Of a stretch of DNA of 64,000 nt, positions 1-64,000 are shown in pieces. The stretch lies in the IMG/VR virus record IMGVR_UViG_3300037755_001279, positions 62,510 through 126,509 of that record; one strand, given 5' to 3'. Below the pieces are notes generated by a model. That model was not told the DNA's origin and made no database searches. It was given only the letters and a program-made list of their open reading frames with translations. Each line of letters begins with the position of its first letter. The stretch's first letter is position 1. The translations under genes and the position numbers were made by a program. This stretch comes from a virus.

Positions 1-687
1 CTCAACCTTTCCGGTGCGCGGGGCGGTGTCACCTACCGCACGGAGGTCATCACCGACCGGACGCAGGTGCGGCACAGCCGCCGCGTCGAGTCCCGCGTCG
101 TCAAGACCATCGACAACGAGGCGCTGGTGCGCGAGATCGACGCGGTCATCAAGAACGTCGACGACACCGTCATGCGGCGTCTGTGCGTCAAGATGACGTT
201 CGGCCATTTCCTGCCGGAGCACAACGCCGCCGAGCTTCACCAGGAAATCGCGCAGCTGCGTGGGCGCGTTGAAGCACTCAACGCCGCCGCGGTGGCGATG
301 GGCAGCCGACACCATGGCAGCGTCGGCGTCTTGACGCCAGCGCTCGACATCGATGACCCGCACTTCGTGATGGAGTGCTGCCGCACGGTGACGGCCGCGC
401 TGACCGACGTGTACGCGGCGCTCCAAGCGGGTGACATCGACGACCAGCAGGCTGACGGCCGGGTCATTCGAAACGCGCTGAAGCCGGCGCTGCTGCGCGC
501 CAAGAACATCGAAGCGCTGGCTGAGGGAGACGCCGGCACGCTGCTGCAACAGGCCTTCGCGCGCGTGCGCAGCGTCAAGTCTGAGATCCGATCGCTCATC
601 GCTGCGGGCGCACCGCCGGATGAAGCTGGCCGCAACGTCAACCTGCGCGACGTCGAGCGCGCGCTGCAGCTGTTTCAAGTGCCATGA
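1..687 (+). CDS. Hypothetical phage protein, 5'-truncated by window edge
   Basis: Frame is open from base 1 to TGA at 685-687; helical, no recognisable motif. Confidence 0.6.
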   Translation, partial: LNLSGARGGVTYRTEVITDRTQVRHSRRVESRVVKTIDNEALVREIDAVIKNVDDTVMRRLCVKMTFGHFLPEHNAAELHQEIAQLRGRVEALNAAAVAMGSRHHGSVGVLTPALDIDDPHFVMECCRTVTAALTDVYAALQAGDIDDQQADGRVIRNALKPALLRAKNIEALAEGDAGTLLQQAFARVRSVKSEIRSLIAAGAPPDEAGRNVNLRDVERALQLFQVP

Positions 688-721
688 CGCTTTCGGCCGC
701 GGCTGATTCACTGCTCGTTGA

Positions 722-2508
722 ATGGCACGAGACTTTCGTTTCGCAGGCCAACGCCGCCCTCGAAAAATTCGTCTGGGACGCAACACAGGTAGCGCCGGTA
801 TGTACTTCAACCCTGGGCCATTCCTTGCGGACTTACTGACGAATGTTGATGCCTACGTCCGCGGCGAGGGCACGCAGATTGTCTACAGCGCCGGCAACGA
901 TTACACCAGTCGGCATCGCTGCGCCAAACCTCGCACAACTTCCGCCGACCTGCAGCAGGAAGACACGATCCTGGCTGCCTGGCGACAGCACGACGAAAGC
1001 CCAAAATGACGACACCCCAAAAATGGCACGTGCCGGCCAACCCTATCGCGCAGCAAGCCGAAACGCGCGGTGAACCGATGCCTATCGGTGAGACGGCCGC
1101 GGCGCTCACCGCGCGCGGGTACGACGTGCCGGCAGCGATTCCACCGGCGGCCGTCCTTGCCGCTGTCGCTGAAAGTCCGACGGGGTACGCCTGGCGCTGG
1201 GTAGGGTCGCGATTCGAGGCGGTAGACGCACCGCTCAATGCCGAAGAGCGCGCATGGTACCTCGCAACGTGAAGAACATGCCCAAACTCAAGTCGCCCAA
1301 GAAACTTGAACGCCGCTTCGTCATCTACGGCGTCAAGCCGACGTCCAAGCTGTTCCCGGCGTGCTGCCGGCTCTGGTTGTCCGTCGACGGCCGCAAGGTG
1401 TCGTTCGACGGGTTCGAGGCTGCGCCCATTTCGCGCCACTACACACCCGGCAGCCTGCCCGAGCGCTACCTGGCGCGCGCGCTGCGGGCCATCAAGGGCG
1501 AGCACCCGACGACGTGGGGTAAGCTGGAGACGGTGTGGCGGTGGCAAAACGAGTAGACCTGGCGACGCTTGAGGCGTGGCACGTGGCGCTCGCACAGCTT
1601 GACGTCGAGCTGCTGAAGTTCACGTGGACGCCGGAAGCACACCCGCGCCATGCGCTCAACGGCGAGGCCATGCGCGGCCGCGCCGTCGTTTTGTGGCAAC
1701 AAACAGGCGGCGTGAAGGTGTCGGTCTTTAGCAGTGCGCCGAGCAACATGATCGTGCGCGTAGCGGTTCCGTGGGCGGCTACAGCGCAGCTGACCGGTTG
1801 GCGGCCGCTCGACGGTGAACCTGAGCATTCACCCGAGCGCAAACGATTGTGGCCTCGCGGCGCTGCGTGGGAAGCTACGTTCACGCACTGTCTCGGCCGC
1901 GGCCGCGGTACGTGGTTGATCGCACGGCTGAGCGCCGGCAAGTACGCTATTGCTGCAGCAACGTTCACGTGTCGCGCCGCGCAGCTGCGTAAAGCCAGCG
2001 CGCGCGCCGCGCAGCTGGGCGCCGGCGAGCTTGGCCGTGAAGTCTCGCACATCGGCCACGGCGCTGTGTCGAACTACCCGCGGCACGTACTAGGTACGCG
2101 CCTGCTGCTGTCCACGGCGGACCGTGAAGCTGGCGATGCCTACCGGATCCCGTGGGCGACATGACCTCCGACGAGCTTCTGATTGCCTGGCACGAGGCGC
2201 TGCAGCCGTTCGCGGTGCAGCGCTTCGTGTGGGACGCCGTTGCCTGCGCGCCGGCGGAGTTGGCGTTCGCGCCACGCCTCGTGGCGCTGAAGATCAACGC
2301 GTTCGCGGCCCACGGGATCCTGTCCGTACACTATACAGACGTTGACGCTGACCAAACGTGCAACGTCGTGGTTCAGCTTCGCTGCAGCGGTGGCCGCAGC
2401 CGGCCGCCGTCCGCCGTTGTCGGAGAGATCCTGCGCAGGATTCCGGATCAGCTCTTGACATGGTCACATGCCGGATCAGCTCTTGACATGGTCACATGTC
2501 AGGACTAA
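722..2508 (+). other. Run of short, overlapping hypothetical phage genes (722-1009, 1006-1272, ~1269-1556, 1535-2164, 2152-2508)
   Basis: Consecutive same-strand ORFs with overlapping stop/start codons, typical of phage early regions. Confidence 0.55.
2443..2498. repeat. Perfect 28-bp tandem duplication CCGGATCAGCTCTTGACATGGTCACATG x2
   Basis: Copies read directly at 2443-2470 and 2471-2498. Confidence 0.95.
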
Positions 2509-2511
2509 GAT
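2483..2511 (+). promoter_or_regulatory. Sigma70-type promoter TTGACA-N17-TAAGAT overlapped by an imperfect palindrome (candidate operator)
   Basis: TTGACA 2483-2488, TAAGAT 2506-2511; TCTTGACATG-GTCA-CATGTCAGGA dyad at 2481-2504; AT-rich downstream. Confidence 0.7.
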
Positions 2512-7095: not shown

Positions 7096-7662
7096 ATGGA
7101 CCAATTGAAAGCTGACATCACTGCCGCCGCGGGGCGGTTCGCCGACGAGATCGCCGCGATCCAGCAGCGGCACTACGGCGCGCGCATCCGCGACCTTGTC
7201 GCTGGCTTCCAGCTACAGCCTGCAGACGTTCTCAAGGATGCCCAGGACCGTGACCGCGCCGCCGTCCTCGACCGCCGGCGCTACGGCCTTGCACCTCGCC
7301 GCAGCACGTCTGCGGTCGAGCCCAAGGCCAAGTGCGGCGCCACCGACAAGTTTCGGCGCCGTAGTCCTGAAGAACTGGACGCGCTCACCGCACGGCTGGC
7401 CGAGTACATCGTGCAGCACCCCGGCCAGCGCATCGAACAGATCGGCAAGGTGCTGAACGCGTCCACCGCAGATCTCACCCGGCCCATGAAGCGGCTGATC
7501 ACCGGCGGCATCGTGAAGTCCCATGGATTGCTGCGCGCGACGTCGTACTGGTCGAACACGCCGACGCCGGTGACGATCAAGCTCAAGCCCAAGGCCAAGG
7601 CCAAACCTAAGGCCAAGGCCAAGGCCAAGGCCAAGACCAAGAAAGGCGGCAAGCGTGGCTGA
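7096..7662 (+). CDS. Myxobacterial-type winged-helix DNA-binding protein with Lys/Ala-rich histone-like tail
   Basis: RRRSPEELDALTARLAEYIVQHPGQRIEQIGKVL...LITGGIVKSHGLLRATSYW resembles a family I recall from Polyangia/Myxococcota; C-terminal KPKAKAK repeats. Confidence 0.7.
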   Translation: MDQLKADITAAAGRFADEIAAIQQRHYGARIRDLVAGFQLQPADVLKDAQDRDRAAVLDRRRYGLAPRRSTSAVEPKAKCGATDKFRRRSPEELDALTARLAEYIVQHPGQRIEQIGKVLNASTADLTRPMKRLITGGIVKSHGLLRATSYWSNTPTPVTIKLKPKAKAKPKAKAKAKAKTKKGGKRG

Positions 7663-15953: not shown

Positions 15954-16631
15954 ATGCACACGTACGACGCCCTGGGCGCCACCACCGCCAGCTTCGTGTG
16001 TGGATCCAGCGGCACGTGCACCGGATCCACGCGCGCCACGCAAGAAGCCTTCATCGCGCTGCAGACCCAGATCAACCGGGTCGGCGTGAGCTACGGCATC
16101 ACCAAGATCGCCACGGACGGCAAGATCGGACCGTTGACGCTGCGCGCCATGACCAACCTGGCACGGGGGTTGGCGGCGAAGCTCGGCGGCAACCTCGACC
16201 CGATCGTCGAAGAGCTGATCATCGAGGATCCGACCCACCCGGTTACCACCGCGGACCTGGCCATCAACGCCGAGCGACTCGCCGCGGCGCTACAGCGTGA
16301 CGGCACGCGCGCCGAGACCTGGGGCCCGCTGAACACCATCCGTGAAATCGCCCAGCAGATCGTCGCGGCCGGCGGCGCCGCACCGCAGGTACCGCCGATC
16401 TCCGCCGGCGTGCCGCTGGACCCCTACCGGTCAACCACCGTGCCGCAGCCGCCGGCGACGCCGTACCCCGCCACCGCGCCGAACCTGTGGGCCTACGTGC
16501 CGCCGACAAGCGGGCAAAGCCCGGCGCCGTACATCACGGCGCTGCCCCGGCTGTCACCCCTGTGGATCGCGATCGGCGTCGGCGCCCTGGCGCTGTTCGG
16601 CGGTGTCGTGGCGGCCGTCGCGCGGCGGTAG
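15954..16631 (+). CDS. Membrane-anchored protein with peptidoglycan-binding-like motif; candidate virion membrane protein
   Basis: ALQTQIN...DGKIGPLT, Pro-rich linker, C-terminal TM followed by RR. Confidence 0.55.
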   Translation: MHTYDALGATTASFVCGSSGTCTGSTRATQEAFIALQTQINRVGVSYGITKIATDGKIGPLTLRAMTNLARGLAAKLGGNLDPIVEELIIEDPTHPVTTADLAINAERLAAALQRDGTRAETWGPLNTIREIAQQIVAAGGAAPQVPPISAGVPLDPYRSTTVPQPPATPYPATAPNLWAYVPPTSGQSPAPYITALPRLSPLWIAIGVGALALFGGVVAAVARR

Positions 16632-17448: not shown

Positions 17449-17975
17449 CTGTGCCGCCAGTCGATGGTGCAGCTGACCGCGATCCCTAGTCCGATGCCGA
17501 GGGCGAGTTTGGCGGCGAGTGAGAGATCGAGCGGCCATGTCTCAATGAAATAGGCGAACGAGATCACCACGAGCACGAGAAGCCAATCAAGAAAGTCGCG
17601 TGGCATCGTCACGCCGCCGCCGTTTTGAAATCGGCATCCGACGGCCACGGCGCCCATTGATCACCTTGCAACGCTGACTCCGGGATACCCGACACCGGGT
17701 GCCACGCCGTCCACACCGCCGGGCCGCGGCTCGCGCGCGAGTAGAACGTCACCAAGCCGTCGCGCAGCACGACGGCGTACTCACGCACTGCCGACGTGCG
17801 GACGGTGGCTGGACATTTGGCTTGTTGGAGAGCCTGGGCGAACGTCATGACGTCTTCACCGTCCCGTGCTCGACCGTTTCGCACCTGAAGTAGCCGTCGC
17901 TGTACAGCCACCAGCAGACGAAGTAGTACCGGCCGCGGCGGATGCCGCTGTCGATCAACGCGCGGCTTGACACAG

Positions 17976-18049
17976 TTGCGGGGACAGGATTTGAACCTGT
18001 GACCTTCGGGATATGAGCCCGACGAGCTACCAGACCGCTCCACCCCGCA
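17976..18049 (-). tRNA. tRNA-Met(CAT), initiator type, no encoded CCA
   Basis: TGCGGGG acceptor, TCGGG-CTCATAT-CCCGA anticodon arm with three G-C pairs, TTCAAAT T-loop. Confidence 0.92.
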
Positions 18050-19064: not shown

Positions 19065-19312
19065 GGCGCAGCCTGCCTTGCAGCGTCTCGGCGCTGTTGT
19101 TCGGCTTCGGCAGCGCGTAAGACGCTTGCCATGGCATCGATGTTGCCGCCGACCACGCTCACGGTTTGTTGCAGATCTAGATCAAAATGCTTGTACAGCC
19201 AGCGCACGGACCAGTGCACGCGTTCACCGTCGAATCCATTCGCGTCGTACCCGGGCAGGTCAGGAGGCGCCGCGCCAGTGGGCAGGAACACAGGGTATGG
19301 CAGGGGCGTCAT
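19061..19312 (-). CDS. Hypothetical protein, LDAAxxEQxRR family
   Basis: 83-aa ORF containing VLRAAEAEQQRR; coupled to both neighbours. Confidence 0.55.
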   Translation of the reverse strand: MTPLPYPVFLPTGAAPPDLPGYDANGFDGERVHWSVRWLYKHFDLDLQQTVSVVGGNIDAMASVLRAAEAEQQRRDAARQAAP

Positions 19313-21063: not shown

Positions 21064-21088
21064 GAGGAAAGCCGGCCTGTCAAGCGCC

Positions 21089-21119
21089 ATCCTATCATGA
21101 CGGACCGACGTGGTAGGGT
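21089..21119. promoter_or_regulatory. Bidirectional pair of conserved phage promoters
   Basis: - CGTCGG-N7-TG-A-TAGGAT (21110-21089); + TGACGG-N7-TG-G-TAGGGT (21098-21119). Confidence 0.65.
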
Positions 21120-21939: not shown

Positions 21940-22236
21940 TCACGCAGCGCGGCGTGCCGCTTCAGCCAGCGCTGCGGTAAGCACATTGTCGAACGCGGCG
22001 TCATCACTTGTCGTACTTGGCGCTGCAGCCACTAACGCCGCCACCAAATCCTCGTCGGTGACCCCCATGTACCTGAGCAACACGGACAGGTTCAACACCG
22101 GAAACTTGAACGCCAGGACGTCAGGCCACTTCGTGAGGTCGCCGGTCATCGCACCGCCGGCAACTGCGCGTGCACCTGCCGCGTAGATCATCCGGCACAT
22201 GCGCAGTTGCTGTTCAAGATCGAGGTCGAGCTTCAT
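21940..22236 (-). CDS. Hypothetical protein, distant LDAAxxEQxRR family member
   Basis: MKLDLDLE start coupled to the upstream stop; KWPDVL...VLTAALAEAARR. Confidence 0.5.
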   Translation of the reverse strand: MKLDLDLEQQLRMCRMIYAAGARAVAGGAMTGDLTKWPDVLAFKFPVLNLSVLLRYMGVTDEDLVAALVAAAPSTTSDDAAFDNVLTAALAEAARRAA

Positions 22237-24863: not shown

Positions 24864-24873
24864 CTAGCCGTGC

Positions 24874-26537: not shown

Positions 26538-26570
26538 GGTGGCAGCCTATCACGGCGGCGCCGCGGTCGG

Positions 26571-43415: not shown

Positions 43416-44321
43416 TCAGCGCGGCCGCGGGCCGGGCTTGGTCGGAGACGCCTTGGGTGCCGCTGGTGCCGCGCGTGCGGCCAGCAATGCCGCCACGGCC
43501 TGAGCCTGTTTGGCGGCAAGCGCCGCCTTGACCGTGTCCGGGACGTTCTTCGGCGTGTACTCCGGCAGCGACAAGATGTCAGCGATGCCACGAAAGCTCG
43601 GGAACTGGATCGCGTCCGGCAGCTTGCCGCCGTCACGGCCACCGCCGATGTACCCACCGAAACCGTTGGTCTGGACTTCCCAGACCTTCACCATCGGCGG
43701 CAGGCTCGGGTCCTCAGCTGCGTCGATGTTCGGCGCTTCGTATCGGCGGTGGTAGAAGATGTAGTCGCAGCCAGCCGGAAAGCGCATCCGCGACTTGCCC
43801 GACAACATCGGACCGCCGGGATTCTCATCGTCCGGCGCCGCCGCTAGCGCCGTCCAGACGACGTTGCAAGGCAACCGGTGGATCTGCTGCCGTGTGTACG
43901 ACAGGTGATTTGCCATCGCGCCGTAGAGACCGCGCGTGTCGACACCCTTGGGGCCAGGGTTCTTGAGCATCTTCTGATGCTCGGCTTGAAACCACGACTC
44001 GGCGTAGAACGTCAGCGAGTCGACGACGATGGTGTCGATGTACCCGAGACGAACCCACTCCTCGGCGATGGCGATGGCCTCGGTCATGCTGCCCTGGTCG
44101 TAGACCGGCAGCACCTCGGGCCCCTTGTCGTGATAGAACCACGCCGCGTTCATCTCTTCGAGCGTGGTCCAGCCGCGCTCGGTGGCGTCGGCGATGAAGA
44201 CGGCGTTGGGAAAAGTCCCTGCAAACTGCGTCTTGCCGCTGCGAGGATCGCCGTAGCACAGGAACGTGCGGAACTGCGCCGCCGACGACTTGCCGGACTT
44301 GATGGTGATGGGATTGATCAC
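43416..44321 (-). CDS. Sak4-like AAA ATPase (recombinase)
   Basis: YGDPRSGKT Walker A, TIVVDSLT Walker B. Confidence 0.8.
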   Translation of the reverse strand: MINPITIKSGKSSAAQFRTFLCYGDPRSGKTQFAGTFPNAVFIADATERGWTTLEEMNAAWFYHDKGPEVLPVYDQGSMTEAIAIAEEWVRLGYIDTIVVDSLTFYAESWFQAEHQKMLKNPGPKGVDTRGLYGAMANHLSYTRQQIHRLPCNVVWTALAAAPDDENPGGPMLSGKSRMRFPAGCDYIFYHRRYEAPNIDAAEDPSLPPMVKVWEVQTNGFGGYIGGGRDGGKLPDAIQFPSFRGIADILSLPEYTPKNVPDTVKAALAAKQAQAVAALLAARAAPAAPKASPTKPGPRPR

Positions 44322-44655: not shown

Positions 44656-45780
44656 TCATGCACCCTCAATTTCACGCGGCGCGTCGATATCACCGCCAGC
44701 ACAGTGATCGAACAGCTCGCACAGCGTCTGGTACCGCGTGACGCACGCCGAGCGCGACGGCGGGTAGCTGCCGGTGGCCTCGGCCATGGCCATCTCCGCG
44801 TCCCAGACGCGCAGCGACCGGCGGTGGTTCTTCAGCACGGCCTTCGGCGGCTGCACCGGCACCCGGTCGAACTTTGGGATCTTGGTCTTGATGATGCGGT
44901 TCACGACCGCGCCGCGCAGCGGGCCCCACTTCCGGTGGTAGCCGAGCTGTTCGTACAGGTCGATCTCCCCGAAGATCTGGCCGTCGTTGCGCCACTCCTC
45001 ACGGCTAGCGAGCGTGTCAGCTGAGGTCGACTTGTGATTGCACACGTAGACGCCGGGCAGCCACGATTCAAAGGGCGCATCGACGCGGAACACGAGGTCC
45101 CAGCGGCAGCTCTGCCCCGTCCGCGGATCGACCACCAGCTCTTCGACGGCAAGCGGCACGAGCCACGACTCGTCGCGGTACTCCAGCCGATACGCGTCGT
45201 ACAGCCGCCAAGCCTCTTCGAGAAACTCCGGCGTGACCGGGACCAACTCAAAGAAGCGCTTGACCTCGTCGGGCCCGACCGGATACAGCGGGTTGATCCG
45301 CTGCATGTAGTGCACCGCCAGGAAAAGGTGCAACAAGCTGCCGACCTCCAGCGCCTTGGGTCCGGCGCCGTCACCGCGCTCACGCTTGGTGCCGTACTTA
45401 TGCTTCCAGAGGTAGCGGCACCGCTGAAAACAGCTCACGCTCGACCAGCCGCGGGCGCCGGACATGCCGCCGAGCAACGGCAGCTCGACGGCCTCGAAGA
45501 GTTTCTTGGCTGCGTAGTCGGTGCTGTAGAACGTCGGTTCAGCGTTGCCGATGATGAAGGTGCCTGGCGCTGCCACCGTAGCCACCACCTCCGTGCGCAC
45601 CCAGATTTCGCCAGGGGTGTCGGCCAGCTCATGCGTATCGTCCACCGACAACCCGAAGTTGTCGGTGATGACGACGGTGCACGTGCCGCTCTGCGGATGG
45701 AACCACAACCCGTCGTATTGCGACGCGGTCAAGGCTCCGCCACAGAGGAAACATTTCCTCTTGGGGGTACGGGTCTTCAT
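44656..45780 (-). CDS. PD-(D/E)XK (RecB/Cas4-like) exonuclease
   Basis: WSS-x-x-x-FQRC, GSLLH, VEE, RWDLV, NHKST, C-terminal Cys cluster. Confidence 0.75.
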   Translation of the reverse strand: MKTRTPKRKCFLCGGALTASQYDGLWFHPQSGTCTVVITDNFGLSVDDTHELADTPGEIWVRTEVVATVAAPGTFIIGNAEPTFYSTDYAAKKLFEAVELPLLGGMSGARGWSSVSCFQRCRYLWKHKYGTKRERGDGAGPKALEVGSLLHLFLAVHYMQRINPLYPVGPDEVKRFFELVPVTPEFLEEAWRLYDAYRLEYRDESWLVPLAVEELVVDPRTGQSCRWDLVFRVDAPFESWLPGVYVCNHKSTSADTLASREEWRNDGQIFGEIDLYEQLGYHRKWGPLRGAVVNRIIKTKIPKFDRVPVQPPKAVLKNHRRSLRVWDAEMAMAEATGSYPPSRSACVTRYQTLCELFDHCAGGDIDAPREIEGA

Positions 45781-45877: not shown

Positions 45878-47437
45878 CTAACGCTCGCCGGAAAAAGCGC
45901 CGGCGCCCCCCGAGACGATCTCGTTGAGCTTTGCGAGGAGCGCTTCATCCACAGGTTCGTCTGTGGATAAATCGAAGCCGGAACCTGCGGCCGGCATTGC
46001 AGAAGCTGCACCGCGGGCGAGCTTTGCCACCACTTTATCCACAAGCAGCTGTTCGACCGGATGGCGCACGCGAAAAAAAGTTGAGGTCATCACGCGGGTC
46101 GGGTCAAACCCGCGCATCTCACCCTGGTAGACCACCGCCGGCGTCCAGTCGATCTCAGTGAAAAGCGTGTCCGACGCGTGCGACAGGTCAAGGCCGACCT
46201 GGCCGACGCTCAGCGTGGCGGCAAGCGCGCCGTACGGGTCATCGCGCCACGCGTCGAGTGTCGCCATTCGCTTCGCAACGGGCATGTCGCCGTGGATCAT
46301 GTATGCGTGGCGCCCGGCCTCGTTGATCAGCTTGGCCGTGGCCTTAGCGACGTCCTTGTGCCAGCTCCAAATGATCGACGGCCCCGCCAATGCCAACGCC
46401 GCCGCCGCCACCGCAGGCACCTTGAGTTTTGCGGTCGCCTGCCGGTACCGGTTGATGGCGCCGATGGTGCTGTCTTCGACCGCAGCGTCACGCAGCGCCT
46501 CGGCCGTGATGTCCAGCTCGTCGAACGCAGTGCTGTCGATGTCAACGTCGACGAATCGGCGGATCGTTGGCGTCAGGTCCGGGCGCTCGGTGCGCCAATC
46601 GGCCTGGAAAACGACCTCGGCACGCCGCTGATGCCACTCTTCCTCGTTGGAGATCTCCCCGTAGATCCAACCGTACTCGCCGGGGACCGGCGAACAATGC
46701 CTCTGGTTGAAATTGAACGGCGATGATCCCCACGCGCCCGGGTTGGCAATCGTGAGCAGCGGCCACAAACCCTTCGTCGAATTCCACAGCGGCGTACCGG
46801 TCAAGACGATCACGCGCTTGGCTAGGATGGCGAAGTTGCGGACCGCCTTCGAGCGCTGGCTACCAACGTTAGCCAGCAGGTGTGCCTCATCGACGATCAA
46901 CGTCCCGGGCGCAAGCGCAAGCAGATGCTGGTGCGCCGCGATATCGTAGTGGCAAAAGATGAAGTCGGCCTTGCGGATCGCGGCAACGTCAAGCGTGCGC
47001 CCTTCCAGGCAGAGCACGTCGGCGCCGGGGAACACACGTTCGATCCAATCGACCCAAACCTGGCGCACGTCGAGCGGCGCAAGAATGACAAGTGGGCCGG
47101 TCTTTGGATCGTGCAGCGTCAAGGCAAGGCTCGTCTTGCCCATGCGCGGCTCAGCTACAATCAGCGTGCCGCGCCGCGTTTCCATCCATGCGCGCGCGCG
47201 CCGCTGCCACGGGCGGTACGTCACGCCGCGGTCTTCGTCGACCTCGGGCACCTCCGGCGTCGCCGGCACGGGCAGCCCGGCGGCGCGCAGCAACGGCAGA
47301 TGCGATCGATGGATTTCGCAGACGCCACCGGGGCGCCCGATGACGCCCGGGACGCCGGGGTCCAGCAGCTGCGCCCAGGCGATCGGGATGAGCCACCAAT
47401 CGTTGCGCCCGGCCGGGGTGATCGCCGGCTTTGTCAC
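45878..47437 (-). CDS. SNF2-family helicase
   Basis: EPRMGKT, VDEAH, LTGTP, VGLDL, DWTP-x-x-x-x-QGEMR. Confidence 0.88.
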   Translation of the reverse strand: MTKPAITPAGRNDWWLIPIAWAQLLDPGVPGVIGRPGGVCEIHRSHLPLLRAAGLPVPATPEVPEVDEDRGVTYRPWQRRARAWMETRRGTLIVAEPRMGKTSLALTLHDPKTGPLVILAPLDVRQVWVDWIERVFPGADVLCLEGRTLDVAAIRKADFIFCHYDIAAHQHLLALAPGTLIVDEAHLLANVGSQRSKAVRNFAILAKRVIVLTGTPLWNSTKGLWPLLTIANPGAWGSSPFNFNQRHCSPVPGEYGWIYGEISNEEEWHQRRAEVVFQADWRTERPDLTPTIRRFVDVDIDSTAFDELDITAEALRDAAVEDSTIGAINRYRQATAKLKVPAVAAAALALAGPSIIWSWHKDVAKATAKLINEAGRHAYMIHGDMPVAKRMATLDAWRDDPYGALAATLSVGQVGLDLSHASDTLFTEIDWTPAVVYQGEMRGFDPTRVMTSTFFRVRHPVEQLLVDKVVAKLARGAASAMPAAGSGFDLSTDEPVDEALLAKLNEIVSGGAGAFSGER

Positions 47438-47748: not shown

Positions 47749-49383
47749 GTGACGTTGCTCCTCCCCGCAGATTTCCAGAACCATCGTATGCGGTTGCGGA
47801 CGGTCATCGAAGGCCTGCGCAACGCACCGGCCAGCGACCAGGCGCAGGGCGCCGGGCAGAACATCCTCGACATCGAACAGGCCAACGGCGGTCGTTTCAT
47901 CATCGTTGATGGTGAGCCGCATCTGTTCACGGGCTTCGGCAAGAAGTTGCTGCCGCTACAACACGGCGATCCGCGTTGGGCGGCACACCTCCTGATGATC
48001 TATGGCCTCAACACCAAGGACAAAGAAGTGTCGCCCAAAATCACCAACGTGCTCGCCAGCTTCGCGCTGTGGAACGGTGCCAAGATGTCGCCGCGACGCT
48101 GGACGGCGTTCGTCGATGGCGCCTTGTACCTTAGCCGATACAACGGCACGATGCTGCGCCTCACCGGGTCCGGCGTCGAAGAGGACGAACGCGGATTCTT
48201 GGTCGACGACGCGTGGCGCCGCGGTACGCCGGCGGGCACCAACCCGATCGTGGCCGACGTGATCGACAACGGCCGCACGGTGCTCTTCGCCGATGATGAC
48301 AGCGGATCGATGCCCGACGAGCCGGTCATCGGCCGCAACGGCCGGCTATTTCGAATTCTACGCGGCGTCAATTGGTCGCGCAGCACCGTCGGCGGCTTGA
48401 AGCCCAAGCACCAGGTGCAGGTATTGATGATCTGGATGCTGGCGACGGCGTTCCCGGACATTTTCCCGACCAAGCCGATCTTACTCGTCGAGGGCGCGCC
48501 CAACTCCGGCAAGAGTACCCTCATGCAGATGATCCAGCAGGCACTGTTCGGCGCCATCGAGCCGTTCGTCGTCAGCGAAAACGGCGAGCGTGATTTTTGG
48601 GTCGCGCTCATGCGCAGCCCCCTCATGGTGCTCGACAACGCCGACGATCTGATCGACTGGCTGCCGTCAACGATCAACGCATACGTCACCCGCGGCTACC
48701 GGACAGAGCGCCGGCTGCACACCAACACCGGCCGCGTCGAGATCCGGCCGCAGTCGTTCATCGCCGTAGCATCCAAGGACCCCAAAAGTTTTCGTCGCGA
48801 GGACACCGCGGACCGCAGCATCGTCCTGCGGATGGATAGTCGCTTCGTACCCGGCGGCGTCGGCGGTGACAGCGCGCAGGCGCTGACAGCCGCCGTGGCA
48901 CAGGACCGCGCGCGCATCTACGGCGAATGGTTGTACTATCTCAACCGCGTCGTTGCCGCGCTACGGCTTGAACCGCCGCGGCGTACGACCACGCGCCTGG
49001 GTGATTTCGAACTGTTCGCGTATGCCGCGTGCCGCGCGCTGGGCTGGCAAAGCAGCGTCGTCGTGCCGGACTTGATGGCCGCGCTCGGGCGCGAGCGCGC
49101 CGTGTTCGCCGCCGAAGCTGACATTGTCCTCGACATTATCAACGATTGGATCAGCGGCTTCCCTGCGAATGAAGGGCGGCAGATCAGCGTCCGCGATCTC
49201 TTCCGCGACCTCGCCATGCTCGCCCAGGCCAACAACAAGCCGTTCGTCAAGACGCCGCAAGCGTTGGCACAGCGGCTGCGCGCGCCGCACATGCGCGTCG
49301 CCTTTGACATCTACGACCAGATGATCGGTGACAAACGCATCTACCAGATCTTCACGCCGCAAAAACCGACGGAGGCAAATTGA
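47749..49383 (+). CDS. SF3-like replicative helicase (primase-associated type)
   Basis: GAPNSGKST, MVLDN, RRLHTN, DRS; conserved promoter at 47715-47736. Confidence 0.75.
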   Translation: MTLLLPADFQNHRMRLRTVIEGLRNAPASDQAQGAGQNILDIEQANGGRFIIVDGEPHLFTGFGKKLLPLQHGDPRWAAHLLMIYGLNTKDKEVSPKITNVLASFALWNGAKMSPRRWTAFVDGALYLSRYNGTMLRLTGSGVEEDERGFLVDDAWRRGTPAGTNPIVADVIDNGRTVLFADDDSGSMPDEPVIGRNGRLFRILRGVNWSRSTVGGLKPKHQVQVLMIWMLATAFPDIFPTKPILLVEGAPNSGKSTLMQMIQQALFGAIEPFVVSENGERDFWVALMRSPLMVLDNADDLIDWLPSTINAYVTRGYRTERRLHTNTGRVEIRPQSFIAVASKDPKSFRREDTADRSIVLRMDSRFVPGGVGGDSAQALTAAVAQDRARIYGEWLYYLNRVVAALRLEPPRRTTTRLGDFELFAYAACRALGWQSSVVVPDLMAALGRERAVFAAEADIVLDIINDWISGFPANEGRQISVRDLFRDLAMLAQANNKPFVKTPQALAQRLRAPHMRVAFDIYDQMIGDKRIYQIFTPQKPTEAN

Positions 49384-50382: not shown

Positions 50383-50868
50383 ATGCTCGCAGCCACCCGT
50401 TTCACCACCCGACGCCGTGGCTTCCTCGGCGCCATCAAGGAGCCGCTCGCCAACCTGCGCCAGCCGATGCTGGACTCGGGCACCGGTGAAGCTGGCGGCA
50501 CCCGCAACGTCAAGTTCCTGCCGCCGCCGAGCTGGGGGAGCACCGGCGGCACAACGCAGGTGAACTGGATGGGCCCGGCCATCAAGTCCTACTGGTTCAC
50601 CGCCGCGGTGGGGCCCACCGCCGGCGGCTCGGGTCCTGGCGCCAGCCAGCCGCCCGGCTTCCAGACACCGGCCGGCGCGGCCGTCAACACCGTCAACGGC
50701 GGCAATGGCAACGGCGGGACCCTGGCGCCGGCCAGCGGCGCCAGCGCCACGCCGGTGGCGACGGAGCCGACCGCGACGATCCTGCCGGCGCCGCCGAAGA
50801 GCTGGTGGCCGTGGGTGATCGCCGGCGTGGTGGCGGCGGGCGTCAGCGCGTACTTCGTCAGTCGCTGA
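50383..50868 (+). CDS. Gly/Thr-rich protein with C-terminal TM; candidate virion membrane protein
   Basis: N-terminal RRRGFLG; C-terminal WWPWVIAGVVAAGVSAYFVSR; TGGTACCGT upstream. Confidence 0.65.
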   Translation: MLAATRFTTRRRGFLGAIKEPLANLRQPMLDSGTGEAGGTRNVKFLPPPSWGSTGGTTQVNWMGPAIKSYWFTAAVGPTAGGSGPGASQPPGFQTPAGAAVNTVNGGNGNGGTLAPASGASATPVATEPTATILPAPPKSWWPWVIAGVVAAGVSAYFVSR

Positions 50869-50873: not shown

Positions 50874-52427
50874 CTACCGCCCCCGCCCCCGCCCCCGCTC
50901 GCACAGCAGTAGAATCACGGGAATGTCAAGGACACGGGCTATGTCGAGTAGGACGTGCAGCATGACCCGCTGGCAAGCCGCCTCCATGTTCGACACGGCA
51001 GCACGGGTCAGCGGCGGGTGAAGGCTATCGCCCAGAGCGGCCTGTGACACGCCGCGGTGTTCACGTGCCTTCCTGATGCGCGCGCCGATGCCAACGTAGA
51101 CCGATTCGACGCGCATCACCCGATCCCGACGGCGTCCGTCTCGGTCACCCCGCTCGTCCCGCAGCGCCTCGGCCACGGTGAGCACCCCACCCGCCGCCGG
51201 GCTGCTCGGGGCGCGATGCTCGGCATCCTCCTTGTCCCGCAACGCGGCCAGCAGTTCGGCGTCAACGCTGTCGTATTCGTTGCGCGCCTCTACGATGGCA
51301 TCCGCGGCGGCGGCGGTCGGGCACTTCGCCACGAGCTTTCCGTCCGCCGCGATCACCTCGTACGTCCAGTCTTGATCGACTCGCCATGGCCCCGGGTAGC
51401 CGTCCGGTGACCCCATCGCCTCCTCGACGGTCGCGCGCTTCGCCGGGCTGCTCGGGGCTGCGGTGGCGATAGCGGCGATGGCGTCGCGCAGCTCGATGCG
51501 CGACGGGTGCCCCTCGGCGTCCGGGTCACGGCTGCTGCCGTCGCCCTCGTGAGACCACCAGTCGGCGGCGATGTCGAACCCTCGCCGCATCCCGCGCTCC
51601 TCCGCCCCTCTCAGGTCCGCCCCCGCCCCATCCGGCCCGACGGCGGGTGCTGGGGGAGGGGAGACATCCGAGCGGGCCATGAACGCGTGCGCCCACGTCT
51701 GCGTGTAGTCGCAGTACGGGCAGAGCCAGCCCCGCGCGGTGGCCACGAGGACGCCGGTGTCGTGGCCGTCGTCGACGTGCAGATTGCTTCCTCTGTCGCC
51801 GCAGGTGAACGGGTGGCGGTCGGTGCGCCGCTGCCACACGTTGAGCGCCACGATCTCCGGCGGCGTGAACGGCGCCTCGATACGTTCGTCGCTGCGGTCG
51901 ATGGCGGCGGGGCGAGCGGCCGCGCCCGCGTCGCACTCGGAGGCGGTGCGGGCCGGGGCCGTCGCCTCCCACGCGGCGAGCAGCGCCTTGCCGCTGCGGT
52001 CGACGGGCGGCGGGGCGAGCAGGCGGTCGATGACCGCAATCGCCGCCGGCACGCCGTCGTACAGGGCCGACCCGCGGTTGCCGGCGACCTCCGCTCGGTA
52101 CAGCTCGCGGTTGATCGCCGCCCTGACGTCGGCGAGCCCCCGTCGTTCGCGCTCGCTCAGCCCCGGACGGGCGGCAAGGGCGCGAGCCGCACACCCATGG
52201 CACAGCCACATCGGCTTGCCAGTCTCGCCGTAGTTGAGCAGTCCCGTGTTGGCCCACTGGCACGATGGGCAGCGGTCGGGGGCGTACGGGTGCTTGGCGG
52301 CAAGGGCGGCGGACTCGACACGGCGGCGGCGTATCTCGGTGACCATGCTGCGCGCGCAGGCACTGTTCACGCTGCCCACGCCTTCCAGTTCCGTCAGTTC
52401 CTCGTCGGTCAGGTCTTCACTCGGCAT
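50874..52427 (-). CDS. Mosaic multi-module phage protein ending in an XRE HTH domain
   Basis: MPSEDL start; zinc-ribbon modules; repeated APSSPA linkers; IGARIRKAREHRGVSQAALG. Confidence 0.55.
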   Translation of the reverse strand: MPSEDLTDEELTELEGVGSVNSACARSMVTEIRRRRVESAALAAKHPYAPDRCPSCQWANTGLLNYGETGKPMWLCHGCAARALAARPGLSERERRGLADVRAAINRELYRAEVAGNRGSALYDGVPAAIAVIDRLLAPPPVDRSGKALLAAWEATAPARTASECDAGAAARPAAIDRSDERIEAPFTPPEIVALNVWQRRTDRHPFTCGDRGSNLHVDDGHDTGVLVATARGWLCPYCDYTQTWAHAFMARSDVSPPPAPAVGPDGAGADLRGAEERGMRRGFDIAADWWSHEGDGSSRDPDAEGHPSRIELRDAIAAIATAAPSSPAKRATVEEAMGSPDGYPGPWRVDQDWTYEVIAADGKLVAKCPTAAAADAIVEARNEYDSVDAELLAALRDKEDAEHRAPSSPAAGGVLTVAEALRDERGDRDGRRRDRVMRVESVYVGIGARIRKAREHRGVSQAALGDSLHPPLTRAAVSNMEAACQRVMLHVLLDIARVLDIPVILLLCERGRGRGR

Positions 52428-55585: not shown

Positions 55586-57667
55586 TCAGGCCCCGGCGTT
55601 GACGTTGAACAGGCGCTGCTGCTTGCCCTGCTGGACCTTGATGAGGATATTCGTGCGCTTCGTCGACGAAAAGCCGAGGCCCGAGAGCTGTCCGTCCACA
55701 GGCTGGCACTTGGTCTTGTCGCCGATGACCTCGAAGACCTTGCGGTGCGGCTCCAGGCGCGGGTGCAAGAATTCGTTGTAGATGCCACGCGTGGGCTCGT
55801 CGTTCTTGGCGTCGTGCAGGACGAAGAACGTGTGCTTGTTGCCGACCGCGTTGTCGCCCCAATAGTTGGGACTCAGCGTGACGGCATCGACCTTGACGTA
55901 CTGCTCGGTCGTGAGCCCCCACTTGGTCTGGGAGATGTTCGACGCCGTGATCGCCGGGTCGCCCGTCTCGACGCTCTCGATGCGCCCCGCTTTCATGCGC
56001 AAGGTCACGACGTGGACGTCCTGCTTGTCGCGCACGCCCTTGTTGTAGGAGAAGTGCGAGAGCTTGCCGCCGCACTCCACCTCGACCACGAAGCCGACGG
56101 CACTCGACTCACGCCGGGCGAAATTGTTCACGACGATCTTGTAGGTGCCGTTCGGCATCTGGTCCATCCAGACGACGTTTTCGACGGCCTCACGCGACGT
56201 GCCGCTGCCGGCGTTCATGTCGACGTCGAGCGTGCCGCCGGTCGCGCCACGCTTGTTGCCGTAGAAGATATGGTCGCGCGTAGCGTAGACGCCGCGTCCG
56301 GCCGGCTCGTAGATGTGCAGGTCGAGGTCATCGTAGTTGAACCACGAGAGCGACACGCGCAAGGTCGCACCCTCGACCTTGCCGCCGGCCTTCTTCACGC
56401 GCTCGGCGATCGAGTCGGTCACGTTGCCGCCGTAGCTCCAGGCGAAGTCATTGTTCCAGCGGAAGAGCTGCTTGGGCTCCGGGTTCACAGGCGCCGTCAG
56501 CGACATCAGGTTGCCGAGGTGCTCGCCCCTGAGCATGATCTCCAGGCTCGTCGCCTCGGGCAGTACCTGCGCAATGAACGCATCGAGCCCGATGTCCTCG
56601 GCGCGCTCCTCGTCCTTCTTCGTGTTCTTCGGGTTCGCCGCCGTCGCGACCTGCATGAGGGTGTCGACGAGCCCGCCCTTCATAGCCGGCTTGACGCTGC
56701 CGTCGACCCACAGCACGTCGTTGACCGAGATGTCGCTGATGGTGGCGAAGCGGCGTTCGAGCGCGGATGCGAGGTCCAGCGTCTCGATGGTCTCCATCGC
56801 TTGCTTCACCATGGCCGGCGTGATCACGGCCGTGGTGCGCTTGTAGTTGGTCGGCGCCACCTTCTGCTCGAAGCTGGCGACGGCCTGCTCGACGTCGACG
56901 CCTTCACTGAGGTCTTGCACGAGGGTGCCGATCACCGTGTTGCGGAATCGCGACGCCGGGCCGACGGCGTTAGCCCAGGCGAAGACGGCTCGTTCGCGCG
57001 GAGCCTTGGCCTGGAACGCTTTCTGCGCCTTCACGAACTCCACGACCGCGTTCTTGTGCTCGGCACCGCGGTACAGGTTGTTGGCCTCGATGAGCGCAAG
57101 CACGGTATCCAGGGCATGAGGCTTCAGCTCGGTCAGGCCCCGCGTGAAGACCTGCACCGTGGTGCGGTAATCGCCGCAGACCTGGTCGGGCGACACGGCC
57201 TGCAGCGCCTGCGGAATCACGTCCGTGTAGAGGTGGTTCCAGGTGAGCGCCTTGCCGCCAGCGTCGAGCGACCGCGAGGTGGCACAGCCGAAGTTATTCT
57301 CCTTCGGGCTCACACGAAACAGATCAGAGATGTCAGCGGCAAGTACGACGTCACGCAGACCGATGGCCACGACGTTGTACGGGTACGGCGCCTTCTTGGC
57401 CGCCTCGTCCCAGACGGTGCTGACCACGCCCTGATCGCTGACGGCCACGACGTTGCCCGCGCGACGGATGAACTGCCTGCAGCTCGAACACGCGTGTTCC
57501 GTCTCCTTCTTGAAGATCGGGTTGGTGCCGCTGGGAAACGTCGCCAGGTACAGTCCGTAGAGCGCATCACCCTCCACGCCGGTGACGCAGACCTGCGAGG
57601 CCTTGGCGATGGACTGAAAGGAAGATGCGACGATCTTCGCGAAGGGCGGGAAGTGATTGGTGGTCAT
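55586..57667 (-). CDS. Large conserved phage protein with HxCxxC motif and YfaP/DUF2135-like domain
   Basis: EHACSSCRQF; LRVSLSWFNYDDLDLHIYEP...LDVDMN...VENVVW; GAGG SD. Confidence 0.75.
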   Translation of the reverse strand: MTTNHFPPFAKIVASSFQSIAKASQVCVTGVEGDALYGLYLATFPSGTNPIFKKETEHACSSCRQFIRRAGNVVAVSDQGVVSTVWDEAAKKAPYPYNVVAIGLRDVVLAADISDLFRVSPKENNFGCATSRSLDAGGKALTWNHLYTDVIPQALQAVSPDQVCGDYRTTVQVFTRGLTELKPHALDTVLALIEANNLYRGAEHKNAVVEFVKAQKAFQAKAPRERAVFAWANAVGPASRFRNTVIGTLVQDLSEGVDVEQAVASFEQKVAPTNYKRTTAVITPAMVKQAMETIETLDLASALERRFATISDISVNDVLWVDGSVKPAMKGGLVDTLMQVATAANPKNTKKDEERAEDIGLDAFIAQVLPEATSLEIMLRGEHLGNLMSLTAPVNPEPKQLFRWNNDFAWSYGGNVTDSIAERVKKAGGKVEGATLRVSLSWFNYDDLDLHIYEPAGRGVYATRDHIFYGNKRGATGGTLDVDMNAGSGTSREAVENVVWMDQMPNGTYKIVVNNFARRESSAVGFVVEVECGGKLSHFSYNKGVRDKQDVHVVTLRMKAGRIESVETGDPAITASNISQTKWGLTTEQYVKVDAVTLSPNYWGDNAVGNKHTFFVLHDAKNDEPTRGIYNEFLHPRLEPHRKVFEVIGDKTKCQPVDGQLSGLGFSSTKRTNILIKVQQGKQQRLFNVNAGA

Positions 57668-57697
57668 GTCGGTGTCCTCAGTGAAGTGATTCAACAG

Positions 57698-61401: not shown

Positions 61402-62153
61402 CAGGGCGCGGGGAAAACAGTCACGTGAGTCAAGCTGGTCGTTGGGCGCTGTGTTGGGTACACGCCGATCATATCAGCCCGTGGGTCGGCATAAATAATG
61501 CTGGCCGTGTTTCGTACACCGTCCACGCGACGATCAATGACGGTGCTCTACGCTCCGTTAGCTTCGTCGTCACGAACACTTTCATAGCGGTCCGCGCCGC
61601 CGTACAAGAGGCGGTCATTGCATTGCTGGACAACCTCCAAACAGCACCCGACTGGTCGACGTGCCTGATGGTCATCGCACAGTGCGACTGGCGGTCTAAC
61701 GATGACGTTCAAACTGTGTTCAACGTCCTCGCCGCGGCACGGGCGGCGATGTGACAGACGCTGGACGGTATCGGATGGGATGGGGGTCCTGGATTGCTAC
61801 GTACAGGGGCAACGACCACGTGATCGGCCTTCGACGACTAGGCTGGGGTGTGTTCGACGTGCCCGACAGGGCGTTCGTTAGCCTGAACACTGTTTATCAT
61901 AGGCTCAATAACCTAAGTCGCTTTAGCTTGAGAGCGGTGATGAAATCTAATCAATTCGCTTCTTGGCACAGCATCGCAACCAAAATACGTGACCGCAGCG
62001 CCGTATTTTTCGCTGCCGTCTTCACGCGCTTGTTCTTACTGCCACCTGACCTCCGTGAGTTGGTGATCATTGCGCTGCTTGACGTGGGCGAAGAAATCTC
62101 AGGTGTCAAAGATTCACAGGTCCGCGTCTTTTGGAATGTCTACAAAGCCGCCG

Positions 62154-62849
62154 TCAGCGAGGGTCGTCGAAGGTGCCGCGCTGAAGGAACCGCAGCACCA
62201 GGCGGTGTACCTCCGGCGTGTCCATAATGGCCGTATGGCTAGCATCTACGGTGGTGAACGCGGCCACACCATCTAGCTTGGTTTCTTCGACGGCCACCGT
62301 GCCGTCGTGTTCGGTTTTACCGTCGAAGACACGGTGAGAGATCAAAACGCTGGTCGGGTTCATCACGTCGCGCTTGCGCGTGCCGGCGATGACAGCGAAC
62401 GGCGCCGGTGGGAAAGGCCAGGCACGGTGCGCAGATGCTTCTGTCACCGCACCGAGCGCTTTCCCGGCGGGGCCCATCACCGTCGTGAACGCCCAGCTGA
62501 AGGCACCGTCCATCATCGCTGCTGCCACCGCGCTGCCCTGGTTCGGCGGCGCCAGCATGACGATCCGCCGCCAGCGGATCCGATCGTCGCGGATGTGGCG
62601 CAGCAAGATGCCGCCCAGGGAGTGCGTCACCGCGTGCAGCGGTCGGTCTTTCCAGTCCTGGCGTAGCCGGCTGGCGAGCCGGCGCGCTAGCTTGTCGATC
62701 GGCAGCGTTGTCGACGGATAGTCGTAGGATTTGGTGTCCTTGAAGCCACCAGCGTTGAGTGCCGCCTCCAGCTTGTGCATCGAGCTGGCGCCACGGGCCA
62801 GGCCGTGCAGCAAGATGACGGCGGGCGGTTTGTCAGGCTTCTTGGCCAT
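62154..62849 (-). CDS. Alpha/beta-hydrolase (lipase-like)
   Basis: LHGLAR, THSLGG nucleophile elbow, APPNQGS, HDGTV, catalytic His in ASHT. Confidence 0.9.
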   Translation of the reverse strand: MAKKPDKPPAVILLHGLARGASSMHKLEAALNAGGFKDTKSYDYPSTTLPIDKLARRLASRLRQDWKDRPLHAVTHSLGGILLRHIRDDRIRWRRIVMLAPPNQGSAVAAAMMDGAFSWAFTTVMGPAGKALGAVTEASAHRAWPFPPAPFAVIAGTRKRDVMNPTSVLISHRVFDGKTEHDGTVAVEETKLDGVAAFTTVDASHTAIMDTPEVHRLVLRFLQRGTFDDPR

Positions 62850-64000
62850 GGCGAGTGAACCGTTCGATCAATGTTACCGTCGCGCATAAGCACGGCCCAC
62901 ACAGCTCGCCGAGCACACCGCGCGGTCGTGCGTTGCCGTGGTCCGCGCCGGCGTGGCAGCGCGCCTCGGGAACTTCGACCGTCGACGGGTGGATGACCCG
63001 GCCGAGCACGATCTCGACGGCCGGTGGTTTGTCAGGTTTCCGGGGCAGCATGGCCATTTCGCAGGCGCAGCAATTCGGCGACGACACCGTACGGTTGACG
63101 GTGCACCAGACAACCATGGTAACGACCGTAAACAACGCGAACGAAGAAGTGACGCGCACCGCAGTATACGACCAAACTGTCGCCGCCGTCACCAGACATC
63201 GCAATGACGCCATTGAACGCGATCCAAATTGGTAGCCCGCCCCAGACCAGGCCCCACTTGAATTGCGTGGGCACGATCTCGTGTGTTGCAAAGGCTTCGT
63301 GCCACACGATGATGTCGTACGGCAAGCGGCTCACGGCGTCTCGCACTCCTCGTAACTCTGCACGCCTTCCTTGACCTCGTTGAGCTTGCCGCGCAATCGG
63401 TTGACGTCGTCGAGCGACAGCGTGCGCCCGTGTGCATCAAGTAGCTGTTCGCACACCTCGGCGAGCATCGCGACAAGCTGCCAGGCGACCGATGGCCCTC
63501 TCACTGTGCCACGCCGACGAACAACGCGGCGTCCGCGCCAATGTAGCAGCGCACGTTCTTGCCCTCCGCGGCGTTGTAATCCGCGATATCCTCGCGCGCT
63601 TTGTTGATCAACTCGACGCCGTGTACACCATCCTCGGTGGCGACGCGAATGTAGTGCGGGCTGTCCGGTGTGTCAGCCGGGGTGATGAACGGCACGATGG
63701 GTTGACCTGGAAGGAAGTCGGCGATCTCCGGGTGGATGACGATGGCCTCACGCATGACGGTTGACAGGCGCCAGTGCCAGCGCTGCCGAGCCGCCTGAGC
63801 GTCGAGGATCGCTTGCACCCTGGACCACACGGCGGCAAGCACCTCCGCTTACCGCAACCGCGGTGGCCCGCGCTTCGATTGGAGAAATCGCCGTGGCGTA
63901 GATGACGTGCTTGCCGTCGATGTGCAGCCGCCACTCAGCTGTGTCGTTCGTTGACAACCGGCAGGGACCGATTGTGCGTGCGACCTCGTTGATATAATCA

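Follow-up and report, generated by a model that had tools for sequence, protein, structure and literature searches.

A terminally redundant 126-kb virus genome encoding jelly-roll proteins and no detectable tailed-phage hallmarks

Genome organization and gene content

The window analysed here is a stretch of 64,000 nucleotides, corresponding to bases 62,510–126,509 of a single IMG/VR virus contig of 126,509 bases with a G+C content of 65.5%. The first 126 bases of the contig are repeated at its end, and the genome is complete and terminally redundant, at ∼126.4 kb. The molecule is either circular or circularly permuted, and the uncultivated virus it comes from has a prokaryotic, most probably bacterial, host. 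A sequencing-run search pointed to a sediment metagenome as the probable source, with one further run at a share of 0.05. Relatives were found on 18 IMG/VR contigs of 39–221 kb, of which seven have terminal repeats; family genome sizes backed by such repeats are about 77–138 kb, although contigs reach 221 kb. The virion module is conserved, with its gene order kept across 23 loci. The general features of the window, and the main features outside it, are shown in Table 1.

Table 1. Features of the window (window positions) and of the remaining genome (marked 'genome').
Feature	Position	Strand	Remarks
Second half of genome	1..64000		Early/accessory genes, second small structural-like block, replication module
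188-aa basic protein (pI 10.6)	7096..7662	+	Lys/Ala/Pro repeat tail at C-terminal end
Tyrosine recombinase/integrase, 316 aa	12882..13832	+	Phage_integrase E 5.4e-18; phrog_1
225-aa tail-anchored membrane protein	15954..16631	+	50% identity to G156 counterpart
Thioredoxin (WCGPC), 114 aa	17104..17448	+
tRNA-Met (CAT)	17975..18049	-	ARAGORN and Rfam
593-aa protein	19309..21090	-	N-terminal GDSL/SGNH acylhydrolase domain, one hydrophobic segment
203-aa diverged paralogue of 236-aa coat candidate	22236..22847	-	30% identity (alignment A4)
100-aa tail-anchored membrane protein	23431..23733	-
105-aa protein, pI 12	23790..24107	+	Arg-rich C-terminal tail; weak gene call
Two tRNA-Gln (CTG, TTG)	24793..24948	+	ARAGORN and Rfam
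132-aa basic protein	25710..26108	-	Ends GRGRRRRQR; 48% over 63 aa in G156
102-aa tail-anchored membrane protein	26681..26989	-	72% identity to G156 counterpart
NUDIX hydrolase	31307..31729	-
Family A DNA polymerase (PolA), 920 aa	36791..39553	-	N-terminal UDG-like domain
ThyX-like thymidylate synthase	39717..40745	-
Sak4-like RecA-type ATPase (AAA_24)	43416..44321	-
PD-(D/E)XK exonuclease	44656..45780	-
SNF2-family helicase	45878..47437	-
P-loop helicase	47749..49383	+	Weak SF3-type matches; kept in all relatives examined
161-aa basic (pI 11) tail-anchored membrane protein	50383..50868	+
517-aa protein	50874..52427	-	C-terminal HTH_3 domain
693-aa phrog_1735 member	55586..57667	-	Family without known function
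Conserved virion module	genome about 4.4–38.3 kb		Outside the window
Coat candidates, 236 aa and 171 aa	genome 20821–21531 and 21638–22153		Outside the window

The replication module is real; the preliminary description of it as a complete phage-type module is firmer than the genes named here, which include no primase, ligase or clamp. One batch of 26 proteins also has an exonuclease subunit, MazG, a nucleotide kinase and DNA methyltransferases among the matches listed. ARAGORN makes four tRNA calls in the window, and Rfam confirms the three in Table 1, placing tRNA-Met at 17976–18049 (-) and the two tRNA-Gln at 24793–24946 (+); the fourth, a 98-nt call at 57697–57794, falls below the Rfam tRNA cut-off. 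The integrase matches were tied to their gene by an HxxRHTFAT..Y motif and by length, and homologues are present in relatives G156, G158 and G160. The GDSL/SGNH protein is 45% identical to its G156 counterpart. The phrog_1735 gene is common to many tailed phages yet missing from the nearest relative, and its product has no PDB match.

Searches for tailed-phage hallmarks and a packaging ATPase

The hallmarks of Duplodnaviria, as given in a section of PMC10848233, are an HK97 major capsid protein (MCP), large terminase, portal and maturation protease. PHROGs scans, which took in 157 of the 203 gene calls and left out those under 90 aa, combined with six-frame Pfam searches, identified no terminase, portal or HK97 capsid in this genome or its relatives, and the PHROG scans detected no maturation protease either. 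No PHROG capsid family matched any of the 157 proteins at the level of sequence profiles (two proteins were also folded). With Phage_capsid (PF05065), six-frame searches of this genome and four relatives were empty at E ≤ 1; Terminase_6N found nothing in this genome or five relatives, TerL_ATPase nothing in this genome or four relatives, and Phage_portal (PF04860) nothing in five genomes. The only 'portal' PHROG match (phrog_15528 positions 519–622, E 0.00037) falls on the NUDIX protein, beneath stronger NUDIX matches. The reported lack of terminase, portal and tail genes in the window thus holds for the scanned proteins (in one batch, among the 25 of 49 matching families listed), and TerL, portal and HK97 capsid genes, when sought genome-wide, were not found elsewhere on the contig.

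A packaging ATPase of the FtsK/A32 type had been predicted, and this prediction was not borne out by the FtsK_SpoIIIE and Pox_A32 profiles. FtsK_SpoIIIE matched only the helicase P-loop in this genome (10.7 bits) and nothing above cut-off in the 18 relatives, and Pox_A32 gave no match; the same FtsK_SpoIIIE scan scores the P-loop structural protein of phage SSIP-1 at just 11.4 bits. True P-loops occur only in Sak4, SNF2, the helicase and a MoxR-type AAA protein. The last of these, together with a DUF2201/VWA protein (genome 59616–62023), was weighed as a possible assembly ATPase pair. One sequence with a fused FtsK gamma domain (P0081) was disregarded, as it looks like a chimeric short contig.

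Candidate coat, membrane and DNA-binding proteins

The best conserved non-replication gene encodes the 236-aa protein and adjoins the gene for the conserved 171-aa protein. Structural models of both are jelly rolls, and their best structural matches are the coats of the membrane-containing tailless viruses SPV1, HHIV-2, HCIV-1 and SH1, with the P23-77 coat also among the top matches; Foldseek with the 171-aa model returned HHIV-2, HCIV-1 and SH1 chains at the top. Since all Z scores are 8.1 or lower, and non-capsid jelly rolls score equally, we regard this likeness to coats as suggestive. At E ≤ 0.001, a fold search of BFVD returned 17 matches, mainly to unnamed proteins or CRESS capsids, none of them decisive. 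Complex prediction gave an ipSAE of 0.00 in two runs that covered the pair alone, and speaks neither for nor against binding. Profile-profile comparison detected no similarity between the two families, the A4, A6 and A8 profiles found nothing meaningful among PDB sequences, and Pfam identified no family in 80 members of the 171-aa family. The latter comprises 166 representative clusters at 50% identity; in the automatic labels of the ESM Atlas, Uroviricota is commonest among the few cluster members with a recorded phylum. The two proteins would most likely make up the capsid shell.

Capsid-like paralogues had been noted in the window, and one of them is clear: the 203-aa protein shows 24–29% identity to the 236-aa orthologues in all 23 related loci and has its own orthologue in G156 (42% identity). 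Its neighbour at 22997–23434 (+) shares only a C-terminal motif. A single tail-spike-like protein, carrying an S74 chaperone domain, is encoded outside the window, and in relatives the fibre/spike gene comes after the jelly-roll genes.

The C-terminally anchored membrane proteins noticed in the window are confirmed, with four clear cases (Table 1), and the conserved virion module holds many small membrane and tail-anchored proteins, which are indirect evidence of an internal membrane in the virion. One core protein, a membrane-anchored transglutaminase-like protein with a Cys-His-Asp, cysteine-peptidase-like arrangement, is homologous to the SSIP-1 virion protein gp34 (E 2.7e-20). Two further weak family-profile matches are both to SSIP-1 gp47 (E 0.0019 and 0.047), and for ten other core family profiles no SSIP-1 protein scored below E 0.01. 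A tblastn search of 50,697 phage records with the 236-aa, 171-aa and peptidase-like proteins found no match.

Basic tails that prompted the label protamine-like are indeed present in the 188-aa, 105-aa and 132-aa proteins. The first has a 39% match over 64 aa in G160, while the other two have low coding scores and match the nearest relative only weakly. These basic proteins may condense the DNA. At 710 aa (genome 6001–8133), the longest core protein outside replication is mostly coiled coil and low-complexity sequence and, by eye, Q-rich; PHROG, Pfam and phage tblastn searches gave no match to it, no PDB match fell below E 0.2, and no relative of it was found in IMG/VR. No match was found for a 616-aa protein at genome 42573–44423.

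Nature of the virion, host and relation to known viruses

The window is that half of a complete prokaryotic-virus genome which carries the replication and accessory genes, and we think it probable that the virion is tailless and icosahedral, with a jelly-roll shell over an internal membrane. In this arrangement the two small single-jelly-roll proteins would build the shell, the membrane beneath it would carry the many small tail-anchored and multi-pass proteins of the module, the S74-chaperone fibre protein would form vertex spikes, and the peptidase-like protein would be a virion component, as is gp34 in SSIP-1. A virion of this kind had been put forward from the window alone; the genome-wide absence of hallmarks, the jelly rolls and the gp34 homologue are in its favour, but the expected packaging ATPase did not appear, and the principal coat candidates are encoded beyond the window.

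Alternatively, the virus could belong to the tailed phages (Caudoviricetes), with an HK97 capsid, portal, terminase and tail proteins too diverged for HMM detection and with the jelly rolls serving as decoration, cement or fibre. We consider this unlikely: neither the 157 scanned proteins nor the six-frame searches of the genome and four to five relatives gave a hallmark, and none of the conserved core proteins is as large as a terminase, portal or capsid protein would be, replication proteins aside. The 710-aa protein is mostly coiled coil and has no phage match, and it is a jelly roll of 236 aa that is the best conserved protein outside replication. Slightly less probable still is a pleomorphic, enveloped or otherwise non-icosahedral particle, or a plasmid-like element, with jelly rolls of non-capsid function. 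The homologue of a structural protein from the virion of a cultured icosahedral phage, the position of the fibre/spike gene and the module order common to the 23 loci all argue against it, as does the lack of any partition, relaxase or conjugation family in Pfam scans of 105 proteins.

Because no packaging ATPase was recognised, we can only infer how DNA enters the jelly-roll particle. It could be condensed into a core by arginine-tailed protamine-like proteins and then wrapped by membrane and shell, a route proposed for the archaeal SPV1. That the family is a deep-branching bacterial virus lineage, so far undescribed, with jelly-roll/membrane capsids at 77–221 kb, filled in this way and not by an ATP-driven motor, is a speculative extension that we view as doubtful; if true, it would be a bacterial counterpart, in size range, to the relatives of eukaryotic giant viruses.

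The preliminary assignment to a myxobacterial host is unsupported. The six MAG contigs with relatives are labelled Polyangiales, Tessaracoccus, Actinomycetes, Gemmatimonadota, Alphaproteobacteria and Woesearchaeota, six taxa in five phyla, and the closest relative (85%) is in the MAG labelled Tessaracoccus. A host in the Myxococcota thus agrees with one label, against five pointing elsewhere, and with a compatible G+C content. The top thioredoxin match among 61 genomes of this phylum is marginally the highest of three (57% identity, 116.8 bits), but the top matches among 61 genomes each of the Gemmatimonadota and Actinomycetota phyla reached 110.9 and 109.4 bits, differences within noise. Against 151 genomes from the phylum of the Polyangiales MAG, matches of the tRNA-region DNA did not exceed 90% over 41 nt, and neither comparison discriminates between phyla. 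We therefore judge a myxococcal host improbable. An apparent integrated prophage in a Gemmatimonadota record was rejected: this 'chromosome' consists of contigs joined by 100-N linkers, with the viral parts as separate contigs between them, and so provides no evidence of integration.

For bacterial and archaeal viruses that contain a membrane and lack a tail, listed genome sizes are 9–44 kb (PMC6260650, Table 1), and the build suggested here, of jelly-roll shell-like and many membrane proteins with no tailed hallmarks, is so far known only from viruses several times smaller. A widespread family at 77–221 kb would raise the limit several-fold; none was described in the open-access literature searched. 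Under this reading, some large 'phage' contigs in viromes would come from tailless viruses, and there would be a bacterial regime, so far unexplored, of capsid-size determination and genome packaging in jelly-roll viruses. Such viruses could then be sought with the two coat families as markers.

Compared with Caudoviricetes, the genome shares PolA/Sak4/SNF2/ThyX replication genes, phrog_1735 and an S74-chaperone fibre, but all four hallmarks (HK97 MCP, large terminase, portal and maturation protease) are undetected. The set that defines Sphaerolipoviridae-type viruses, according to passages in PMC5332951 and PMC10848233, is two MCPs, a major membrane protein and a packaging ATPase. Helvetiavirae (SH1, HHIV-2, HCIV-1, P23-77) differ from the family here in genome size (about 30 kbp in HHIV-2 versus 77–221 kb), in showing no sequence or profile similarity to the coat candidates and in the packaging ATPase, for which no equivalent was found. 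The family may resemble them in its two separate small proteins of 236 and 171 aa, each a predicted single jelly roll and a candidate coat, which are encoded close together in a block rich in small membrane proteins. Among the Portogloboviridae, the coat of Sulfolobus polyhedral virus 1 (SPV1; PDB 6OJ0) is one of the best structural matches. SSIP-1, grouped with sphaerolipoviruses in a passage of PMC5332951, is a cultured, icosahedral, tailless membrane phage. Its structural block includes a P-loop protein, gp40; the genome here has no P-loop protein in that place, and this genome is about three times larger, with contigs of relatives up to five times. Both genomes are nonetheless circular dsDNA molecules without recognisable tailed-phage hallmarks.

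Genome structure and gene content of the window

The contig is a single IMG/VR virus record of 126,509 bases (the window being bases 62,510-126,509) with a G+C content of 65.5%. The 126 bases at its start are repeated at position 126,377, seven bases short of the end, and the contig therefore closes on itself with a unique length of ~126.4 kb; IMG/VR labels the record 'linear', and CheckV estimates its completeness at 98%. A codon-usage gene caller gives 203 genes for the whole genome at a coding density of 84%. Of 128 genes that score well, 62 have a Shine-Dalgarno-like motif upstream, as against 12% of random windows; this excess fits a prokaryotic host. Family profiles from PHROGs were applied to 157 of the 203 gene calls, the other 46 being 44 calls shorter than 90 aa, one that spans the edge of a locus, and the gene at 26543-27457, scanned with Pfam only; the Pfam scan covered 105 calls.

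From the window's first 30 kb, Pfam and PHROGs yield nothing beyond a thioredoxin and a tyrosine recombinase. The replication genes are listed below, and a batch of 26 neighbouring proteins includes, among the matches listed, a polymerase exonuclease subunit, MazG, a nucleotide kinase and DNA methyltransferases. The preliminary description had proposed a complete replication module; polymerase, ThyX, exonuclease, helicases and Sak4 were all found, but completeness is not established because primase, ligase and clamp were not identified. The divided polymerase homologue of the G001 virus may reflect an intein or other insert.

Principal features (genome or window coordinates as stated)
Feature	Coordinates	Size	Remarks
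Core protein	genome 17061-17810	249 aa	N-terminal membrane anchor; GDCDD, H and D-T-L motifs invariant
Coat candidate	genome 20821-21531	236 aa	predicted jelly-roll
Coat candidate	genome 21638-22153	171 aa	predicted jelly-roll
S74 fibre	genome 35717-37726	669 aa	Peptidase_S74 chaperone domain
Conserved protein	genome 37785-38255	156 aa	directly after fibre gene, outside window; 87% identity in nearest relative, G156
MoxR-type AAA ATPase, then DUF2201 metallopeptidase/VWA protein	genome 59616-62023 (L005:616-3023)		outside window; pair conserved in G001, G156, G160
Capsid-like paralogue	window 22236-22847 (-)		30% identical to 236-aa coat candidate
DGQHR protein	window 29662-30639 (-)	325 aa	64% identity in G156
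phrog_1735 protein	window 55586-57667 (-)	693 aa	function unknown; E 4e-231
'tRNA-Pro(agg)' (ARAGORN)	window 57697-57794 (-)	98 nt	just downstream of 693-aa gene
Family A polymerase	window	920 aa	N-terminal UDG-like domain
ThyX-like thymidylate synthase	window		
PD-(D/E)XK exonuclease	window		
SNF2 helicase	window		
P-loop helicase	window		weak SF3-type matches
Sak4/AAA_24 protein	window		
NUDIX hydrolase	window		
PolA homologue, G001 virus (L013)	G001:C1:2239152-2240897	1,503-aa open frame	three separated matching pieces
PolA homologue, G002 (L012)	G002:C9:27309-30077		63% identity; one in-frame TGA

Several other features read from the sequence alone were borne out. ARAGORN finds four tRNAs, three of which (Met and two Gln) are confirmed by Rfam; no Rfam family reaches its gathering score at the putative tRNA-Pro. 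There are four clear tail-anchored membrane proteins in the window, and three proteins with the protamine-like Lys/Arg tails that had been noted, two of them weak gene calls. The capsid-like paralogs come down to one clear gene. The reported absence of terminase, portal and tail genes holds in that no scanned window protein (at least 90 aa) matches such a family; for the batch of 26, this applies to 25 of the 49 families matched. The DGQHR motif of the 325-aa protein is presumably ParB/DndB-like. The 693-aa protein shares 43-46% identity over its full length with proteins in 556 tailed-phage records, including Pseudomonas Zuri and pf16, DSS3_VP1, and Salmonella, Klebsiella and other phages. 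It has no match in G156, and for that reason the gene is probably accessory and of recent acquisition.

Packaging and capsid hallmarks across the whole genome

The search for TerL, portal and HK97-type capsid genes was extended to the rest of the contig, and none was found with PHROGs, Pfam or six-frame searches. The 45 proteins encoded in genome 1-40 kb hit no PHROG families other than cysteine dioxygenase, glycosyltransferase and thioredoxin. The sole structural match is the S74 fibre, with hits to families named 'virion structural protein' and 'tail spike'. Six-frame searches gave no Terminase_6N match in this genome and five relatives, and no Phage_capsid, TerL_ATPase or Phage_portal match at E ≤ 1 in this genome and four relatives.

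The FtsK/A32-like packaging ATPase expected of an internal-membrane virus was likewise not found by FtsK_SpoIIIE, Pox_A32 or Walker-A scans. FtsK_SpoIIIE detects only the helicase P-loop (10.7 bits), Pox_A32 has no match, and in 18 relatives no FtsK hit rises above cut-off. The true P-loops in the six-frame Walker-A scan are those of Sak4, SNF2 and the helicase, the MoxR-type AAA protein being a fourth NTPase. As a control, the same FtsK scan scores gp40, the P-loop structural protein of the cultured tailless membrane phage SSIP-1, at only 11.4 bits, so that a distant packaging ATPase could go undetected.

A family of related viruses and their possible hosts

A profile of the 236-aa coat candidate recovers 18 IMG/VR contigs of 39-221 kb and six MAG contigs. 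Direct terminal repeats are present in seven of the 18, at lengths of 77.5, 81.5, 85.2, 85.3, 85.7, 123.9 and 137.9 kb. Gene order is kept: genes for a 710-aa protein, a 2-TM protein, an Arg-tailed protein, a peptidase-like protein, small proteins and a basic 219-aa protein lead to that of the 236-aa protein, followed by a variable insert, the 171-aa, 105-aa and 3-TM proteins, small proteins, a tail-anchored 294-aa protein and the fibre genes. In G156 the coat candidate is the most conserved protein and the 156-aa protein the second. A metagenomic protein of 855 aa (P0204) matches the 171-aa profile in seven separate stretches, and so looks like a tandem repeat of this domain.

Comparison by tblastn with G158, G160 and two G001 contigs, representing three distant relatives that are whole or nearly whole, shows that the small virion-module genes, replication genes, recombinase, PEP-utiliser-domain protein and MoxR/VWA pair are common to them. 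No protein of terminase-, portal- or HK97-capsid-like size and conservation is among those shared.

The proposed Myxococcota host is unsupported; labels on the six MAG contigs fall into five phyla (six taxa), and neither the tRNA nor the thioredoxin comparison tells phyla apart. The sequence turned up in one sequencing run only, from a sediment metagenome that is probably its source. The Gemmatimonadota MAG 'chromosome' (CP070815.1; locus L007 of G001) is interrupted between segments by linkers of exactly 100 N, and two distinct contigs, 61 and 47 kb long, make up its viral parts. The linkers identify it as a chain of joined contigs, and adjacency within it cannot be taken as a sign of integration. 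Family members share the recombinase, yet no integrated copy was seen.

Relationship to SSIP-1 and a putative virion

The 249-aa core protein is found in 21 of 23 loci. As a single sequence it matches nothing at E ≤ 0.1 in 50,697 phage records and no PHROG family, so this domain is not common in tailed phages; there is a weak Transglut_core match (E 0.005). Among 57 targets searched, the 21-member family profile finds gp34 of SSIP-1, which carries the annotation 'structural protein', with E 2.7e-20 and 64.6 bits over 155 residues, all three motifs being aligned. From the remaining profiles came nothing but weak matches, to SSIP-1 gp47, with the 171-aa (E 0.0019) and 105-aa (E 0.047) families.

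What the preliminary description observed is largely right; its host assignment is unsupported. That this is a tailless jelly-roll virus is our main reading, which we hold with moderate confidence from predicted folds with middling scores and the absences in HMM scans; it withstood the search for TerL, portal and HK97 capsid genes that could have refuted it, and it has gained one solid tie to a cultured tailless phage. In such a virion, the 236-aa and 171-aa proteins would form the shell lattice in the manner of the large and small sphaerolipovirus coat proteins, with the 105-aa beta protein encoded after them as candidate vertex protein and putative spikes made by the S74 fibre together with its upstream partner. 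An internal membrane would house the many small membrane and tail-anchored proteins, and the anchored peptidase-like enzyme would be a virion passenger serving wall penetration or maturation. The coiled-coil 710-aa protein may be a scaffold or size ruler. DNA might enter through a packaging ATPase too divergent for detection, or the Arg/Lys-tailed proteins might condense it to a core that is then enclosed.

Realm definitions follow PMC10848233. No description of jelly-roll bacterial viruses this large was found in the open-access literature searched, supplements aside; the known genomes of tailless membrane viruses of prokaryotes given in PMC6260650 are 9-44 kb. Its Table 1 lists SSIP-1 at about 100 nm with T = 49, the entry 'single jelly roll?' and a circular dsDNA genome of 44 kbp. 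PMC5332951 groups SSIP-1 with the sphaerolipoviruses.
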